A stretch of 63,919 nt of DNA, the filler included, from Globobulimina sp. (taxonomy: Eukaryota): the NCBI GenBank assembly GCA_003354225.1. It is 35 parts of 35 records of this genome, joined end to end, with 100 filler letters (N's around TTAATTAATTAA, not from the genome) between each part and the next. Parts side by side here need not be neighbours in the genome. Positions count along the whole stretch, not along the records: positions 7,322 to 9,051 come from PIVH01012615.1; 34 more parts are not named here. One strand, 5' to 3'. The notes beneath the pieces are model-generated. The model did not search any database, was not told where the DNA came from, and saw nothing but the letters and a program-made list of their open reading frames with translations. Positions 5,492 through 60,264 of the stretch are shown here, in pieces (within the stretch, counting starts at the first letter, position 1; each line of letters begins with the position of its first letter). Position numbers and translations under genes: made by a program.

Positions 5492-6961
5492 GAAAATGGC
5501 GAAAGTATAGAATGGTGGGGGAATGATCTATTTTTTGACAACGGGATTGATATAATGGGAGATCCCAATGCAAAAAAGAGTGTATTTTATAACATTCAAG
5601 ATACAGAATTCGATTATAATTTGACAGTAAATGCACATTTGCGCTCTTGTCAAATGTTCGAATTTGAAGCTTTACATGGTTCGATTGGCTGTTCTTTGTT
5701 GGGTGGTTTTTTACCAATAATACCCGGACAATGTGGATTTTTCCGGGCCAAACATTTGTTGGTGAACGAAGTGCGAGGTTGGTATTTTAAAAAAATAAAG
5801 CAAACGAATGACCCAAATAACATGGATTTGGTGTTGGGGAATATGAAATTAGCTGAATATAGAATGTTGACCACATCTTCCATATTAAACAGCGAGTTGC
5901 CAGTTCGACATTCATTAGTACCGGAATGTATATTTTATTTTGCTCCGCAACCCGATTTAACGCAATTCATGAAACAGAGGAGGCGTTGGTTGAACGGCAG
6001 TATCGCCACAACCATCTTTGTATTGCGCAAGATATCCTTTTCGCGATGGAAAGTGAATATATTCCGACGACATTTTGTTTTATCATTGTGGTATATGCAG
6101 TTTTTTATGTATCTCGTATTGGCGGCATCGCCCGCATTAATTTTCACCATCTCATTTGTATATGGTTTAGTTACAATATTGGATAAGATATTAGTGGATA
6201 ACGGTGATGGTGCAAAAATAAAAAAGATGAACACCGTAACAACTGTATTTATGATGATGTCATGGAGTATGTTTCTGTTATTTGTTTTTTTTGCGCAGAG
6301 AAAGGACAATTTGAGTTATAGGAAACTCAAAATAAATAAACAAACAATCGTACGAGGAACGTTATTGATGTCGTCCGCGTTTGGTATGTTGACCTTGATT
6401 GGTACGCTTATGCCGCTGGCAAACGGCATAAGAGGGCAAGAATCTGGTTATAGGACTTTTCATTTTGCCGTTATTTTGATTCAAGTGCTATTTTTTCTGC
6501 AGTCATTCGTCTTGGCACCGTTAATTAGTCGAGATTTTAAAACATTGACTATTTTATTAAGGACAGGCTTTCAGTATTATTTATATGCTCCGTTTTATTG
6601 TTCATTTGTATTTATCAATGCTTTGGCAAATGTACATGATTTGAGTTGGGGCATTCGATCGCGAGCAGATAATAAAGAGAATAAAGATGAAAATAAAGCA
6701 ATTGTTGAGGATTATTCGAAAATTACTACATTTAAACTATTATTCGTGGTAATTGTTATGAATATCGTGGTTGCGTTTGCTGTGCGGCCATTCACTGAAT
6801 ATCGCTATACGAATATAATGTTCTTTGCAGCATTGGTTACGCCATTGTTATATCAGGTATTTTTTTCATTAATATGGTTAACAAAAACAACATTAGTGTT
6901 GAATTTGTGGAGTTTATGCAAACCAAAAAAAATGAATCAGGAAATTCAATATCTTGGTTAA
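5492..6961 (+). CDS. Chitin synthase-like GT2, C-terminal catalytic + TM region, 5' truncated
   Basis: QMFEF, IIPGQCGFFR, NMKLAEYR, QRRRWLNG, ANVHDLSWG and multiple TM helices; frame open from the contig start. Confidence 0.88.
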   Translation, partial: ENGESIEWWGNDLFFDNGIDIMGDPNAKKSVFYNIQDTEFDYNLTVNAHLRSCQMFEFEALHGSIGCSLLGGFLPIIPGQCGFFRAKHLLVNEVRGWYFKKIKQTNDPNNMDLVLGNMKLAEYRMLTTSSILNSELPVRHSLVPECIFYFAPQPDLTQFMKQRRRWLNGSIATTIFVLRKISFSRWKVNIFRRHFVLSLWYMQFFMYLVLAASPALIFTISFVYGLVTILDKILVDNGDGAKIKKMNTVTTVFMMMSWSMFLLFVFFAQRKDNLSYRKLKINKQTIVRGTLLMSSAFGMLTLIGTLMPLANGIRGQESGYRTFHFAVILIQVLFFLQSFVLAPLISRDFKTLTILLRTGFQYYLYAPFYCSFVFINALANVHDLSWGIRSRADNKENKDENKAIVEDYSKITTFKLLFVVIVMNIVVAFAVRPFTEYRYTNIMFFAALVTPLLYQVFFSLIWLTKTTLVLNLWSLCKPKKMNQEIQYLG

Positions 6962-7402
6962 AATGAGTCCAGGATGTCATTTATAAAAACGTTTCTTTCC
7001 TTATTTTGCTTAATTTATTCTATCGCGTTATAACTTTAATTTTATTGTTTTTATTTTTATTTTGAAAAAAAGACAGTAATAAATGGTTTGTTTGAGTTAA
7101 ATTGCAGTTTTTTTTTATTAACTTTATTTATGTTAGATTTAAATTGTTAGATTTTGTGTGTTTATATATTTATATTTATATTTTTGTTGGGAACGTAAGA
7201 GAAATATTCGGTATACATGGGNNNNNNNNNNNNNNNNNNNNNNNNNNNNNNNNNNNNNNNNNNNNTTAATTAATTAANNNNNNNNNNNNNNNNNNNNNNN
7301 NNNNNNNNNNNNNNNNNNNNNTATATCTAGACATTGTTATTTTTTGATTAGAATTTAAAAAAAAAACTTTTTGTTGATAAATCAGAACTGTTTATCCTAT
7401 TA

Positions 7403-8786
7403 ATGGGTAATGTTAAAAGTCTAAATGAAGATGGTGATAATCAAAAAATAACAATGGAATTAAAAAATGAAGAATTAAAAAAAATGCCTCCACCCTCTGG
7501 AATGACATTTATTAATACCAAAAATGTATCATCAACTCCAAGCACATTAATTATAACTCCAGACAAGCAATTACCACCATATACACCATGGACTGTTAAT
7601 AAAATTACTCAAAGAATAGTATCTGATCGAATTATTGAACTAGCTGCAGATTTCTGGTGCAAAAATATCGATATACTATCAATGAAAGACCGTTTAGTTA
7701 AGTCAACGAATTTTATTTATGATAAATGGTCCCTCCAAGAAGCGTTTGTATATGTTTTCGAGAGGATATTTATGAAACGGAGTGGTTTTAGAGGGACCAT
7801 TTATGAAAAGGGTCCCTATAAAACCAATCTGTTTTCAAATCAAATCACTTATAGTATACACTCTGTAGTCTGTACCTCCAACGAGCTCGAGGGTCGTTTA
7901 TATATAAATCCGTTACGAATCCAATATTTCCTTTTTACAGAACTTAGGATGTTCCATATTTTTCTTAACAAGCGAAGAAACTCAGAAAATATTAACAAAA
8001 AAATGTAAAACATCTGCAAAATTGGAATCTGTAAGTTTAAAATTCCTGGATATGATTGGATACGTTGTACGTTCTGCTACAGTCGGCGAAGGCAATTCGA
8101 ATTTATTGTGGCGATTAGGACAATTGCATGAAGCAATGGGTGTAACCATTGCATGTTATGCTGCAGTGTTAAAACAAATGCATAATGTATTTCAATTTTA
8201 TTTTCCAATGCAATATACCGAAGAAGTAAAATTTGCATTTGATGAAATGTTCACATTTGTTACTATGCAAATGACTGGAAAAGATTTACAAATATTGCAT
8301 CCACCACAAAACGCAATATTTTTACATTCAATCAGAGCGTGCATTAAATCTACTGTAGGCAGACAATATTTATTTCGATATTTCCATCAAACATATTGTG
8401 ATGAAATGGTAATGTTTCTTAAATTGGTAACAATGTTTAAGGCAGAAACAGATGCGAATCGTTTCTTGATTGCTAAAGAGATTCAGAGGATTTGTATTGA
8501 CGCCGAAGGTGTGTTTGCAATAAATATTAGTTATGAATGTAGACAACAGGTATTTTTTGTTGTTGTTTTGTTTTCTGTAATGTCTACAAGTTTGTGTATG
8601 TACATGCAGATCACTCGAAATATTGATAAATATGAAAAAGAATATGTTGATAACTCTCATGCAAATCATAGAATGGAACAGGATTTTTTTATTGATGCAG
8701 AAGATGAAATTTGTAGATTAATCCGACAAAATCATTGGAGAAGATTTAAACAAGTTATCCATGATTTATTTAGCAAAGAATCCTAA
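7403..8786 (+). CDS. Globin-RGS fusion protein (exons 7403-7696, 7941-8549, 8610-8786; 359 aa)
   Basis: GT-AG introns join in frame. Globin: FW(A12)...LGCSIFF...SLKFLDMIGYVV...LGQLHEAMGV (F8 His)...YTEEVKFAF. RGS: GRQYLFRYFHQTYCDEMVMFL, AKEIQRICI, AINISYECR, FFIDAEDEICRLIRQNHWRRFK. Confidence 0.82.
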
Positions 8787-9151
8787 TAAATATTAAACAA
8801 TATATCGCAGTGTCCATTGTTGACACTTTATTTTTATGTCAATTTCATAAATTCAATCGCATTTTCCCTCCCATTCGCAATTTCATACACTCTCCACATC
8901 GCATTTTTTTGTTAGATTTATCGTGTTATAATTTATAAAGTTCCTGTTGTGCCTAATTTCTTTTTTTAATTGTACCGTCACAAAACTCACAAAACTCACT
9001 TTTCTTCCAAAGACCAACTACCTTCGAGTGCCTCATGTCAGACTCAGCTATNNNNNNNNNNNNNNNNNNNNNNNNNNNNNNNNNNNNNNNNNNNNTTAAT
9101 TAATTAANNNNNNNNNNNNNNNNNNNNNNNNNNNNNNNNNNNNNNNNNNNN

Positions 9152-27450: not shown

Positions 27451-28980
27451 AAAAGAGCACTGCATGCAAACAAAAGTCAACTATCCCGTGCGATAACAGA
27501 CTCCAAAGAGAAAAGTGCATGGTATAGAAAGCAATTACAAAATGATGATGACGCAGTGAGTCGCATCAAACCAGTCAACGACTATCAAACAATTCGGAAT
27601 AGATTAAACAGAGCAAAATCACCAAGCGATTATATTGCATACTTGGATAAAAATAAAGAAGTAAAAGTGTTGGATTGTTCTGTTTATGGTAAAGCAATGA
27701 AAATGTGCACAAAACACAGAGATTACAATGGAGTCAAAACAATCATGGACATACTCCTCAGACAAATTACAGAAACACATTCTGTTAAAGTTGAAAACGT
27801 TGACTCTGTGGTATTCTCCATATTTTTCAATGCGATGACAAAGACAGATGAACCATTGCTCATTAACAGATACTTCAAAATCATGACCGATGATTTAAAA
27901 CTTTGTCCAGATATTATTATCTTTTCAATACTAATAAAATCCTGCAGAGCACAGGCAAAGTATCAGCTGGCTGAACAATATTGGAAATTAATGGAAAATA
28001 CTTATAAGCTCAAAGCAAACTATTTTGTTTATAATGAAATGATATCTGTTTATTCCATTTCCCAGCAATACAACAAAGCTATTGATAAATTCAATGAATT
28101 GTTTCGGACTCTTAGTGAGTCGGAAAAGAAACAAGCAGCGTTTTTTAAGATATTTGGAACTTATTTGAACATATTCAGTCGGATTGGAGATGTTAAAGGA
28201 ATGCAGAATGCAATCGAATTAATTCAAATATATGATCATAAATTAGATATTGCGATGTATGGTGATCTGATGAGAGGATGTATTGTCGCAAGAAAACCCA
28301 AAAAGGCAATAAAATATTATAACACATTAAGTAAAGATAAAATAAAAACAGATGCAACAACACAAAGTTTAAAAGGAATTGCATTGGAACAAATCATTAA
28401 AAATGATAAGGAATTAAATTTTGAGCAGAAATTAACAATTTATGATAAACTGATTGGACATAATCAGAATTCCAAGTTGATACCACGTGCAATTGCAGCA
28501 AATACAGAGCTGAGAACATGCATTGTATTATACCATAACTACGAACCTATGAAAATAGTAGAAACGTTTGAGAAATATAAACATTTAATAAATTACAAAA
28601 CCGCTGCAGATACGATTGATTTTCATATCTTTGACCATATTCAAGTACAGTTTTTATTGCGCTATATTTTAGGATTTAAGTTAAATGAATTTAATGTTGA
28701 TATAAACAATGGATTGGTAGTTGTTGTTGGAAGAGGAAAACATAATGTTATGATAGGCAGGAATTGGAAATACAGTCTCAAGCAGTTTGTTGAAGATGAA
28801 TTATTACGCTATGAACCACCAATTAAATGCAAAGTTGATGACTCTAATAGAGGGCGGCTGTTTATTCCAAAAAATGAATTGTTGCCATATTTGACGAATG
28901 AAACAAATTATGCCAAAAATAAGTTAAAATATCCATCGAATGACTGGTATTTAACTGATCAAAGAACTTTTACAGATTAA
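27451..28980 (+). CDS. PPR-Smr protein, 5' truncated
   Basis: 35-aa repeats (PDIIIFSILIKSC, ANYFVYNEMISVY, LDIAMYGDLMRGC); C-terminal Smr IDFH...VVVGRGKH...NRGRL. Confidence 0.85.
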   Translation, partial: KRALHANKSQLSRAITDSKEKSAWYRKQLQNDDDAVSRIKPVNDYQTIRNRLNRAKSPSDYIAYLDKNKEVKVLDCSVYGKAMKMCTKHRDYNGVKTIMDILLRQITETHSVKVENVDSVVFSIFFNAMTKTDEPLLINRYFKIMTDDLKLCPDIIIFSILIKSCRAQAKYQLAEQYWKLMENTYKLKANYFVYNEMISVYSISQQYNKAIDKFNELFRTLSESEKKQAAFFKIFGTYLNIFSRIGDVKGMQNAIELIQIYDHKLDIAMYGDLMRGCIVARKPKKAIKYYNTLSKDKIKTDATTQSLKGIALEQIIKNDKELNFEQKLTIYDKLIGHNQNSKLIPRAIAANTELRTCIVLYHNYEPMKIVETFEKYKHLINYKTAADTIDFHIFDHIQVQFLLRYILGFKLNEFNVDINNGLVVVVGRGKHNVMIGRNWKYSLKQFVEDELLRYEPPIKCKVDDSNRGRLFIPKNELLPYLTNETNYAKNKLKYPSNDWYLTDQRTFTD

Positions 28981-54881: not shown

Positions 54882-56333
54882 AGAAAAAGAGATCGAGCCA
54901 ATAAATCGTCAGACACTGATCGTGCGGCAAAACGACAGAAATTAAATACATTATCAAGATGTAAAATATGTAATGCAAATACTACAAACAATGCAGGTTT
55001 ATCCAATCATATTCGGGCAAGGCATAATTTACAAACATTACGGGATTATCACAACTTAACAGACCATAAAATTAAAGAATTCCAAAAACAAAATGAAGCA
55101 ACACACAAATCACGAGATATCAAATACAAATATAAATGTACAGCGTGTGCAGATACTGACAGATCATTCTTTTGTGCGGGACATATTGGACTGACTTCGC
55201 ATTTACGATCGCATGTAAAACGCGGCGATTTGTCCGATAAACAGCGGCGGAAATTGTTGAAGCAAAGTATGCGAAATCCAGTGCCAATAACGGCACAAAC
55301 AAAGAGCAATGATATCGATGCTCTGCAAAGAAAGCGATTTGTTATGCCACCGTTGAAACTATCATATTATTATAAGCATAATGGCGGCATATCGCAGCTT
55401 GGAATGGAGTCGTTGCTCTACGATGAATGGACCAAACAGCAGCAACTTATGGAACGTGTTCGCGCCAAACAAAGTATGCATATTAATGAACAAGAGCTAG
55501 ATACAAATAATAATGAATCAGAGACAGAGACAGAGTCAATCGATGACGATGAAGATATGGATTTAGATGGTAACGATACGAGAGCAACGGATGAAAATCG
55601 CGTTCGGTGTTGCAAAGATGGTCTAATATTTAGTGTGGTTGGTGATGGTGAAACAATTATGGATGAAATAAAAAGAAATATTATAATTAGAGTGAAACAG
55701 ATATTCGGTGATGATATCGATGAGAATGATGTATTAATTTTAGATAATAAGAAAAATCGATGTATTTATATGTACAGAAGCATCAATAAAATGGTAGAAT
55801 TGAGGAATATGAATAAAAATGATATTTTGCTCCATGTTCAAGAAAGAAAAGAAATTTTATGTAAATTGCCAGATTCTACAATTTATAAAGTGGCCGTATT
55901 TGAGGATGATCCATGTTTTGCATTGAAAGTAAAAGCAAGAGAGTTTAATAAAGAATATTCATTTTCGGAGATTGACTTATATTATAAAGGGGTTTTAATT
56001 GAATGTGATTGGTCAGCAGCTGCAAAATGGAGTGATTATAAAGATATATTTAAGGAAAATATGCTGATTGATATTAAATATAATCGTAAACATTGTGGAG
56101 AGGAATTAATGCCAATATTTCTGAAGAATTTAACTGGACAAACATTGCCATTTGTTGTGTCACAGAGTTATTTTATTGAAGATTTAAAATGTTTAATTTT
56201 TGAGTGGAATGGTATCCCCATCGAGCTACAAGTATTGGTTTATGAGGGGAAACCATTAGAAAATGGTAAAACGTTTCATGAATATGGCATTAATAGAGAT
56301 TCTACCATTTATTTAAAGACTCATACAACTTAA
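54882..56333 (+). CDS. C2H2 zinc-finger + ubiquitin-like domain protein, 5' truncated
   Basis: Frame open from the contig start: CKIC...HIRARH, CTAC...HLRSH; C-terminal MPIFLKNLTGQT...GIPIELQVLVYEGKPLENGKT...STIYL. Confidence 0.75.
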   Translation, partial: RKRDRANKSSDTDRAAKRQKLNTLSRCKICNANTTNNAGLSNHIRARHNLQTLRDYHNLTDHKIKEFQKQNEATHKSRDIKYKYKCTACADTDRSFFCAGHIGLTSHLRSHVKRGDLSDKQRRKLLKQSMRNPVPITAQTKSNDIDALQRKRFVMPPLKLSYYYKHNGGISQLGMESLLYDEWTKQQQLMERVRAKQSMHINEQELDTNNNESETETESIDDDEDMDLDGNDTRATDENRVRCCKDGLIFSVVGDGETIMDEIKRNIIIRVKQIFGDDIDENDVLILDNKKNRCIYMYRSINKMVELRNMNKNDILLHVQERKEILCKLPDSTIYKVAVFEDDPCFALKVKAREFNKEYSFSEIDLYYKGVLIECDWSAAAKWSDYKDIFKENMLIDIKYNRKHCGEELMPIFLKNLTGQTLPFVVSQSYFIEDLKCLIFEWNGIPIELQVLVYEGKPLENGKTFHEYGINRDSTIYLKTHTT

Positions 56334-58536: not shown

Positions 58537-60264
58537 CATCTTCCAACCAGACATTGAACCGCTTTTATCTAACAATAAAACTAAATTTAAATGTTTGCGT
58601 TTAAAATCTTTTGCTTTGATATTCGAGTTTAATCCAATTGACATATAATACTCTCTTTCATCCTTATTATCATCATCGATTACAGCCAATCTCCTTGTTT
58701 TCGCATAACAGTAAGTCGGATAAAATAACATGCAGTCATCCTCCACATCAATCTTCTTCTCTTCCTCAATATGTTTCGTAGCTGAAATATCAAAATAATA
58801 TTCATACAACAATCCATTGTAAGTAATAGAAGTAATTGACGGCATCTTATTTGCTCTGATACACTCTCTAAAATTATTCACATCTTTGGCTCCGCCCAAT
58901 GATAAACCAATTGTATCTGAAGGGGAATAGCAAAATCCTTCAAATCCATCATTTGCTCCAATCGGTGCAGAAACTGTATCAAAACAAACTTCTTTCAAAA
59001 ACGCTGTATCAAAACTAGAACAATCATCATTTCCTTTATTTGCAATTGGTTTATACCGCGGCACAATTTCCATTCTCATCAATTTATCCCACTCCATATC
59101 CTCAAAAAAGCCATGCCGTTGGATTTCCTTTACATCACACTCAGCTGCGCCCAATCGTGTTGTTGCATTTCTATCCAATAACTTCCTCACTAAATCCTTG
59201 CACGCGGCAGATAAATTGGGTGGAAATAATAACGGCGCTTCTTGTATTTTCCTATACATTTCATTCACATTTTGGCTGTAAAATGGTGGAATACCCACAG
59301 TTAACTCATAAAGCATAATACCCAGACACCACCAATCGACAGCTTTGCCGTGTTCCAAATTCATAACAATTTCAGGCGCCATATATTCCGGAGTAAATAA
59401 TGATTGTTCTTCACGAGAGCTCAGAGAGGACCCTAACACACAATGCATCAAACAAATATGTCCCTCATTACTCAACAAAACATTCTCTGGTTTCAACCCC
59501 TTATAAATATATCCCAAACTATGCAAATGCCCCAAAGCCAGAGCCATTTCAGCAATCATAATTTTTGCTTGAGATTCGGAAAACCTTCGTTTCTTTTTTA
59601 AATGGAAAAACAATTCACCACAACGGTACAGTTCAAATACAAAATATAATCTAGCTTCGCTTTGAAATGCCCACTTTAAAGGCATCAGAAATGGATGTTG
59701 ATGGAAAAGGAAAATCTTCCTCTCAGCGCCTGTGTGTTCCACGCAATGTGTTGCTATCAATGTCTTCTTTTTAACTATTTTCATGGCAAATAGTTCGCCA
59801 TTGTCTCTCTTTCGAACTTGAAACAGTTTACCAACGTTTCCGCGGCCAATAACTTTCATAACTTCAAAATCGTTGAGCTGTACAGTTGTTGTTGCAGTGT
59901 TAAGTGGCGATTCTTGTGTTTGTGGTTCGTTGATTTCGTCCGGATACTGGTCTTTGCCAATTAATTCTTGATATCGACGCAATCTTTGCTGTCTTGTTTG
60001 TAACCGGCTTACGTCTCTAGTCACAGTGGCTGTCGTTAAGTTTTTTTCTGAAACAGCATTTATTGACATTTTTTTTGCATCGCTGTTAAGTTGAGACCAT
60101 AGATGCGATAATGTGTCAATTACATGTTTCTTCTCTTTGGTTCTGTATCGATAGTCATATTCCTGCGGAATATGTATTGCGAATTCGTTGCTTGTGTTTG
60201 ATGTGGTGATGGAAGCAATTCTTTTGAGATCAATACGTCTCTGACATTTACGGAGACATTTTCT
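58537..60264 (-). CDS. PH-like + AGC-type (pseudo)kinase fused to a VWA domain; partial at both ends
   Basis: GRGNVG, FAMKIV, LKPEN, TPEYMAPE, DWWCLG, AGC tail with FEGFCY; then GGAKDVNNFRE...LNLVLLLDKSGSM (MIDAS). Confidence 0.85.

Follow-up and report, generated by a model that had tools for sequence, protein, structure and literature searches.

A globin joined to an RGS domain in foraminifera, a candidate haem-based regulator of G-protein signalling

Can a haem-based gas sensor be wired directly to heterotrimeric G-protein signalling within one eukaryotic protein? This question is raised by a gene at positions 7403-8786 of a 63,919-base stretch of DNA from the foraminifer Globobulimina sp. 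(assembly GCA_003354225.1; the whole stretch is called the window here), which encodes a globin domain followed by an RGS domain in a single 359-residue protein. RGS proteins set the duration of G-protein signals, and the inputs known to act on them are protein partners, lipids and phosphorylation. We find that both domains belong to one spliced gene, that both match solved folds and that the same architecture recurs in foraminiferal relatives. The reading we favour, and to which we give about even credence, is that the state of the haem controls the GTPase-activating protein (GAP) activity of the RGS domain toward G-alpha subunits at the membrane.

The window consists of 35 contigs of 1,727-1,731 bases in descending order of size, with 100-base spacers between them (runs of N with TTAATTAATTAA in the middle), and has a G+C content of 33%. 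Because it is made of separate joined contigs, adjacency within it carries no linkage information; the globin-RGS gene is alone on its contig (7322-9051). The coordinates and sequence of 7403-8786 agree with the original prediction, which had proposed one complete protein from two canonical introns. When the exons are joined by coordinates, the spliced coding sequence is 1080 nt long and free of internal stops, and the start ATG at 7403 is the first ATG downstream of an in-frame TAG at 7349. All of the motifs named in the prediction are present (MGNV, FW, LGCSIFF, ESVSLKF, LGQLHEAMGV, YCDEMVMFL, AINISYECR and NHWRRF). Contigs from four public runs (X1, X3, X6 and X8) were aligned to the 1,730-base contig and, together with the domain matches described below, define the following features.

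7383-7402, + strand: 5' untranslated region, minimum extent (intron-less contigs start at 7383 in X3 and 7390 in X8)
7403-7696, + strand: exon 1, residues 1-98, with the MGNVKS start, the low-complexity linker and globin helix A (FW at 84-85)
7697-7940, + strand: intron 1, 244 nt, GTTAAG...TTACAG (7696 joined to 7941 in X3, X6 and X8)
7941-8549, + strand: exon 2, residues 99-301, with globin helices B-H and the first two thirds of the RGS domain
8550-8609, + strand: intron 2, 60 nt, in frame, GTATTT...ATGCAG (skipped by the X3, X6 and X8 contigs)
8610-8786, + strand: exon 3, residues 302-359 and the TAA stop (8784-8786), with the last third of the RGS domain
7613-8282, + strand: globin domain, residues ~71-212, interrupted by intron 1 (model and profile matches)
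8127-8129, + strand: codon CAT for His161, candidate proximal (F8) haem ligand (alignment to the His of Hell's Gate globin I)
8292-8783, + strand: RGS domain, residues ~216-359, interrupted by intron 2 (Pfam and model matches)
8523-8525, + strand: codon AAT for Asn293 of the AINIS motif (alignment to the Asn in the RGS2 motif EINID)
8787-8972, + strand: 3' untranslated region, minimum extent (the main X6 and X8 contigs reach 8912 and 8952; the limit of 8972 is the end of separate short pieces aligned at 8954-8972)

First, we consider whether the two domains are indeed one product. In one contig each of X3, X6 and X8, which come from three different studies and measure 1,040, 1,202 and 1,295 letters, position 7696 is joined directly to 7941, leaving out a stretch with GT..AG ends, and position 8546 is joined directly to 8607. 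The second jump corresponds to the removal of 8550-8609, because CAG on both sides leaves a 3-nt ambiguity. Contigs of X1 cover 7422-7744, 7796-8367 and 8341-8858 and run unspliced across all four exon-intron borders; X1 is therefore genomic DNA. The intron-less contigs, in turn, are presumably transcripts, the RNA nature of X6 and X8 being a guess. Proteins of related organisms agree with the spliced form. P0006 (EukProt, Globobulimina turgida, 159 residues) shares 99.4% identity with residues 201-359 and lacks the intron 2 stretch, and P0005 (EukProt, Bolivina argentea, 369 residues) shares 56% identity over residues 1-358 and lacks both intron stretches. A reading as two separate genes was rejected in view of the single contig that covers all three exons in each of the three runs, and also of 33 other representative proteins that align over both domains in one stretch. 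A coding role for intron 2 was likewise rejected: it is missing from the intron-less contigs and from the relatives, and in an AlphaFold model of the exon 2-intron 2-exon 3 read-through (the window model; mean pLDDT, the predicted local distance difference test score, 84.3) the sole low-confidence stretch, residues 214-228, overlaps the read-through of intron 2 at residues 204-223. The single 359-residue protein of the original prediction is thus confirmed by coordinate joining and by the intron-less contigs.

Three positions distinguish the X3 contig from the window. The X6 and X8 contigs are ~96% identical to the window and have, after 7527 and thus within the linker, 18 additional nucleotides that preserve the frame. 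This X6/X8 variant probably represents another allele, another strain or a sister species. Codon 264 is Tyr in the variant and in P0006, and Phe in the window. Among the 34 coding differences between window and variant that are listed, 12 further differences lying outside the list, 15 are synonymous, compared with a chance expectation of 19.6%, and the 19 replacements include 7 in the N-terminal linker. The excess of synonymous differences is a modest sign of constraint.

Intron 1 begins with GTTAAG directly after the C-terminal KDRL residues of exon 1, and the frame of exon 1 stays open across the whole intron (open frame 7352-8008). Retention of the intron would truncate the protein, with loss of most of the globin domain and of the RGS domain. 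Inside the intron lies a short palindromic element at ~7764-7866 (hairpin fold z -4.3), at which X1 shows many partial contigs and loose ends and a summed contig depth of 152, compared with ~5 in the exons. The element looks like a high-copy repeat resembling a miniature inverted-repeat transposable element; no second copy was found within the window.

Does the architecture occur elsewhere? P0005 was scanned against 1.84 billion representative proteins and matched 141 representative clusters at E ≤ 0.001, 84 at E ≤ 1e-10 and 37 at E ≤ 1e-30. The 33 representatives besides P0005 that align over both domains (query ~75-360) are 20-37% identical to P0005 and form, together with it, the 34-member alignment (A1) from which all family counts below are taken. 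Sources were sought for 30 clusters, of which 19 held organism-named proteins, 21 proteins in total, and the other 11 were unnamed. All 21 named members come from five foraminiferal genera and from nothing else: Bolivina argentea (11), Nonionella stella (6), Elphidium margaritaceum (2), Ammonia sp. (1) and Globobulimina turgida (1). The two species whose taxonomy was checked belong to the Rotaliida, Foraminifera. The search beyond the source DNA, which the original prediction had proposed, therefore leads to foraminifera in every named case and, as judged from these alignments, the globin-RGS architecture is a large, expanded foraminiferal family and not a singleton. A word-indexed profile search matched 5 proteins, a search of the ESM Atlas gave no usable match, and, within the window, the globin-RGS gene was the only one matched by tblastn with three family members as queries. 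Two members, P0063 and P0106, each derive from an ENA contig of 21,870 bases and may be neighbouring paralogues on one genomic contig.

The globin domain is recognized by several lines of evidence. Exon 2 alone, which lacks helix A, reaches 23.4 bits with the Pfam Globin model (PF00042), a small margin over the gathering cut-off of 22, and also gives a partial RGS match. When solved structures were searched directly, Hell's Gate globin I (HGbI, 3s1i) of Methylacidiphilum infernorum was matched at E 0.006, with the His of LGQLHEAMGV opposite the His of LGRRHKQYGV and Val129 opposite the distal E7 Gln. A profile of the 34 full-length relatives was searched against the PDB, with 60 of 159 matches listed, down to E 0.0058. 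It matches HGbI at E 2.2e-13 over helices B-H, and furthermore HGbRL, plant class 1 globins, the globin domain of a nitric oxide synthase and vertebrate globins. Searched against the PDB as a single sequence, P0006 returned nothing at E ≤ 0.01; strong matches to solved RGS and globin structures arise only via the family profile.

Structure models point in the same direction. The AlphaFold model of P0005 has a mean pLDDT of 80.7, with values >90 for most of residues 80-369, and shows seven helices in globin order (A to H) at residues 83-220, helix A spanning 83-98. Its residues 79-222 superimpose on myoglobin with Z 17.4 (root-mean-square deviation, rmsd, 2.1 Å over 133 residues) and on HGbI with Z 17.2 (1.6 Å over 128). 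In the window model, residues 1-113 match HGbI with Z 13.8 (rmsd 1.6 Å over 107), and neuroglobin is matched with Z 13.4. In a separate Foldseek comparison, neuroglobin matches the globin domain with a TMt of 0.69. Both models are thus predicted to adopt the 3-on-3 helical globin fold. Across the family, the proximal F8 residue is His in 32 of 34 members, and the Gly three residues before it (F5) and Tyr200 (P0005 numbering) are invariant. Hence, the globin fold with a proximal His claimed by the original prediction is borne out by Pfam, the family profile, the models and the conservation of the His. The domain is a complete 3-on-3 globin, which most likely binds haem via His161. In the remaining two members, P0032 and P0106, Tyr replaces the proximal His; both also lack the conserved RGS Asn described below and may be degenerate or differently ligated paralogues.

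A distal pocket without a hydrogen-bond donor would disfavour stable O2 binding and would fit sensing of nitric oxide (NO), CO or redox state. The distal side of the 359-residue protein is hydrophobic (Phe105, Val129 and Phe133) and offers no obvious donor of this kind. It is not uniform across the family, where B10 is Phe in 16 and Tyr in 11 members and E11 is Phe in 15 and Tyr in 7. We speculate that the pocket of this particular paralogue fits NO, CO or redox sensing. The original prediction had read a sensor-type pocket from Val at E7. While Val does align to the E7 Gln of HGbI, a pocket type is not readable from Val alone, because E7 varies across the family.

The RGS domain is likewise recognized, both by its Pfam score and by its fold. 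P0006 scores 32.6 bits with the Pfam RGS model (PF00615; cut-off 23.9) over model positions 6-110 of 117, and 31 of 34 family members match at E ≤ 0.01. The family profile matches RGS2 at E 2.5e-13, RGS2, RGS18 and RGS1 all lying at about 1e-13, and the wider set of RGS2, RGS18, RGS1, RGS5, RGS8, RGS16 and RGS4 ranges from E 2.5e-13 to 1e-7. Residues 118-281 of the window model match RGS1 with Z 16.2, and the model matches RGS4 in its complex with G-alpha-i1 (1agr_E) with Z 15.9 (rmsd 2.1 Å over 124). For P0005, Foldseek TMt values of 0.73-0.84 are likewise consistent with a predicted all-helical RGS fold.

In the alignment to RGS2, AINIS lies on EINID, YCDEM on FCEEN and NHW..F on NSY..F. The Asn of EINID corresponds to RGS4 Asn128, through which RGS4 chiefly contacts the switch regions of G-alpha, and the residue aligned to it, Asn293, is Asn in 27 of 34 members. 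The Cys and the later Asn of the domain presumably match RGS2 Cys106 and Asn184, and the Cys-x-Glu and C-terminal Asn-His-Trp..Phe motifs are present in most family members. The full RGS domain that had been predicted is therefore upheld by the Pfam score, the fold matches and the retained key Asn. Its sequence looks like that of a working, R4-type RGS domain with one unusual contact position. The R4 proteins RGS1, RGS2, RGS4, RGS8, RGS16 and RGS18 share the helical fold and the switch-contacting Asn and match best in sequence, but here a hydrophobic residue stands at the position of RGS4 Asn88 and Leu replaces the Trp of the R4 FW motif. Moreover, R4 proteins have only a short amphipathic N-terminus and no globin.

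How might such a protein reach G-alpha? A Met-Gly start with Ser at position 6 is the usual pattern for N-myristoylation. The N-terminus MGNVKS has Gly2 and Ser6, which fits this rule (Met-Gly with a small residue or Ser/Thr at position 6) and makes myristoylation plausible. The MGNV start and the low-complexity linker of the original prediction are both present, and a Met-Gly start is common to 25 of 34 relatives, 14 of which have Ser or Thr at position 6 and 5 of which have Cys at positions 3-5. Residues 1-77 of P0005 are predicted to be disordered (low pLDDT). No membrane-spanning segment was found in the spliced protein, whose highest 19-residue hydropathy is 1.21.

The order of elements is a Met-Gly motif, a ~70-residue disordered linker, the globin, a ~13-residue linker and the R4-type RGS domain; by analogy, this layout is that of a haem-based sensor with an output domain. 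According to the favoured reading, the protein would be anchored at the inner face of the membrane, next to lipid-anchored G-alpha subunits. Helices F, G and H would shift when the haem iron takes up O2, NO or CO or changes its redox state, and the shift would be transmitted via the short linker to the RGS domain. The GTPase-accelerating activity on G-alpha would be raised or lowered by the haem state, and the lifetime of the G-protein signal might then track the gas or redox state of the cell. A radiation of RGS proteins is reported in rhizarians (PMC3971589), and >30 G-alpha subunits are cited for the rhizarian Bigelowiella natans (PMC5784254).

The original prediction further held that this tuning would take place without a G-protein-coupled receptor. 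This claim is unsupported, as some relatives have multi-spanning membrane N-termini. P0067, P0126 and P0038 have 4-6 hydrophobic segments each. Together with P0026, they may be RGS-globin proteins of Nonionella and Bolivina that span the membrane several times in the manner of receptors. In P0067 (908 residues, Nonionella), which contains six hydrophobic segments, an RGS domain lies at 314-492 and a globin stretch follows at 653-806. The layout of P0126 is similar, and in both an extra RGS domain lies upstream of the globin; P0038 (661 residues) has at least 4 hydrophobic segments ahead of the globin-RGS part. In the seven-transmembrane (7TM) RGS proteins of plants and protists, which are reported to put GAP activity at the membrane (PMC3971589), a multi-spanning domain likewise precedes the RGS domain. 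Such a domain is present in P0067, P0126 and P0038 but absent in the 359-residue protein.

Several other known systems resemble the globin-RGS protein in part. In globin-coupled sensors, the haem globin is N-terminal and the signalling output domain C-terminal (PMC7475203). The HemAT, diguanylate-cyclase and kinase types share this globin-then-output order, which is bridged here by the linker of ~13 residues. However, the bacterial and archaeal sensors use S-lineage globins, whereas the output here is a eukaryotic RGS domain combined with a lipid-anchor motif. The Pfam Protoglobin model matches only 3 of 34 relatives compared with 18 of 34 for Globin (at E ≤ 0.01 for the latter count), the best relatives are globins of the flavohaemoglobin lineage or myoglobin-like ones, and no HemAT-type sensor is named among the best 60 of the 159 profile matches. 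The globin-RGS protein would work like a globin-coupled sensor, yet its sequence suggests that it probably stands outside that lineage. Closest by both sequence and fold, among the matches listed, is HGbI, which is bacterial and single-domain and has Tyr at B10 and Gln at E7, where the 359-residue protein has Phe and Val.

Globin X provides an example of a membrane globin with a Met-Gly acylation motif, and the Roadblock/LC7 domain belongs to a family that regulates small GTPases. HGbRL of Methylacidiphilum infernorum (3wfw), a globin with a Roadblock/LC7 domain, is described as a putative globin-coupled sensor (PMC4476040); it is bacterial, and its Roadblock/LC7 domain is unrelated to RGS. 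Human neuroglobin is reported to bind G-alpha-i/o (PMC4842972). It acts in trans as a redox-dependent guanine nucleotide dissociation inhibitor (GDI) and does so without an RGS domain, whereas a fused GAP-type domain provides the link to G-alpha here. Androglobin illustrates that globins can be embedded in signalling proteins (PMC13331133). None of globin X, androglobin and the 7TM-RGS proteins joins a globin to an RGS domain. As far as the published descriptions go, the reported GDI action of neuroglobin (PMC4842972) and HGbRL (PMC4476040) are the nearest functional precedents.

Several observations weigh against control of the RGS domain by haem. On the globin side, the signal is weak in individual sequences, with 16 of 34 relatives unmatched by Pfam Globin at E ≤ 0.01 and P0005 itself unmatched at E ≤ 1. 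The residue aligned to the CD1 Phe of HGbI is Leu in both the 359-residue protein and P0005, and the column contains Phe in 12, Leu in 11, Met in 6, Val in 3 and others in 2 of the 34 members, in a loop whose alignment is less certain. E7 is unconserved (Leu 11, Gln 4, Thr 3, Ala 3, Val 2 and others), which would be odd if every family member senses one ligand. On the RGS side, the Asn in FCEENIEFW of RGS2, which we take to be RGS4 Asn88, a G-alpha contact, is replaced by Met in the 359-residue protein; across the family this second contact position is Ile in 15, Leu in 10, Met in 4, Val in 2 and others in 3. Some RGS domains are reported not to be GAPs or to have lost GAP activity (PMC3971589), and in the literature searched we found no direct statement on a foraminiferal G-alpha. 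Finally, the intron-less contigs are presumed transcripts, as the public records of X3, X6 and X8 do not state whether RNA or DNA was sequenced.

Could the globin be an enzyme that is merely held in place? In this case, a catalytic haem globin (e.g., an NO dioxygenase or a nitrite reductase) would be localized by the RGS domain and the anchor, and allosteric control of GAP activity would be absent. Many globins of the flavohaemoglobin lineage and of the neuroglobin and plant class 1 types handle NO, and the closest sequence and fold relatives are flavohaemoglobin-lineage single-domain bacterial globins (HGbI), neuroglobin and plant class 1 globins. Phe or Tyr occupies B10 in 27 of 34 members, and the nearest named source organism comes from a foraminiferal group that is reported to denitrify (PMC12399780). 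However, no fused reductase partner or domain accompanies the globin, and E7 and B10 vary, whereas a single catalytic chemistry should keep them fixed. The tight co-conservation of the two domains, the short linker and the 33 other clusters fit coupling better than co-localization, and we consider the tethered enzyme unlikely.

A globin fold that carries no haem and serves an ordinary RGS protein as a regulatory, dimerizing or lipid-binding module is improbable as well. Non-haem globin-fold sensor domains do exist in bacteria (RsbR), and marginal Pfam scores, the missing Globin match of P0005, Leu at CD1 and the Tyr in place of the proximal His in P0032 and P0106 would all suit such a module. 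HGbI itself is reported to respond to lipids (PMC11203436). However, His F8 is kept in 32 of 34 members despite only 20-37% identity to P0005, and the L-G-x-x-H-x-x-x-G-I/V motif is also retained. This conservation is hard to explain without a ligand role for the His.

RGS12 and RGS14 combine GAP and GDI functions through an RGS domain plus GoLoco. The globin-RGS protein might similarly be a dual regulator, in which the RGS domain acts as a GAP on G-alpha-GTP and the globin binds G-alpha-GDP in a redox-dependent manner, like ferric neuroglobin. The reported GDI activity of human neuroglobin toward G-alpha-i/o (PMC4842972) and the place of neuroglobin among the best structural matches speak for this arrangement, but the likeness to neuroglobin is no greater than that to myoglobin or HGbI, and we hold a dual regulator to be very unlikely.

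Equally little credence goes to an RGS domain that is not a GAP but a scaffold as in axin, GRKs or sorting nexins, with a partner other than G-alpha and a role outside heterotrimeric G-protein signalling: the hydrophobic contact position, the 7 of 34 relatives without the key Asn, the match of the window model to the RGS-homology domains of axin and GRK1 (Z 13.0-13.7) and the loss of GAP activity in some RGS domains (PMC3971589) are compatible with it, but R4-type GAPs, some of whose structures include G-alpha, match best in both sequence and fold and score above axin and GRK1, and Asn, Cys-x-Glu and Asn-His-Trp..Phe are kept in most members.

We return to control of the RGS domain by haem and to its novelty. 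The original prediction knew of no characterized globin-RGS pairing, and this holds within the literature searched, where no description of a globin-RGS protein was found; prior cataloguing is possible because supplementary files and curated domain-architecture databases lie outside the scope of that search. The available text of the review cited above for the sensor layout (PMC7475203) contains no occurrence of RGS, G protein, foraminifer or Rhizaria, and the main text of a survey of G-protein-coupled receptor systems (PMC3971589) contains none of globin, although its supplementary figure of RGS architectures might bear on novelty. As read from the sequences, the globin-RGS protein would represent the haem-based sensor theme with a new, eukaryotic output domain.

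The other contigs of the window carry ordinary eukaryotic genes. Ten long open reading frames were scanned against Pfam, and 5 of the 10 have no match at E ≤ 0.001. Four regions on these contigs and their matches are listed here.

58537-60264, - strand: protein kinase (Pkinase 176.8 bits)
54882-56330, + strand: protein ending in a ubiquitin domain
27451-28977, + strand: PPR-repeat protein
5492-6958, + strand: weak family 2 glycosyltransferase match, below the Pfam cut-off

If haem does control the RGS domain, the fused globin would be a direct gas or redox input to an RGS protein, which was found nowhere in the literature searched, and the family would form a new class of eukaryotic chimeric globins with a signalling output, beside androglobin and the bacterial globin-coupled sensors. 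The candidate is amenable to study, as it comprises a soluble protein of ~290 residues and transcriptomes of Nonionella and Bolivina exist. Foraminifera have a central part in how nitrogen is cycled in oxygen-poor sediments, and the protein would be a molecular candidate for their perception of oxygen or nitrogen-oxide gradients. More tentatively, and with some doubt, we suggest that foraminifera have built a large, lineage-specific family of membrane-anchored haem sensors that gate RGS GAP activity and thereby feed O2 and NO into G-protein signalling. If so, the variable E7 and B10 residues among paralogues could cover a range of ligands and affinities, and some versions would sit behind multi-spanning receptors. 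The family might then provide a sensing layer for pseudopodial movement and for vertical migration along gradients of O2, nitrate and NO, and would be a eukaryotic counterpart of bacterial HemAT aerotaxis in species of oxygen-depleted sediment.

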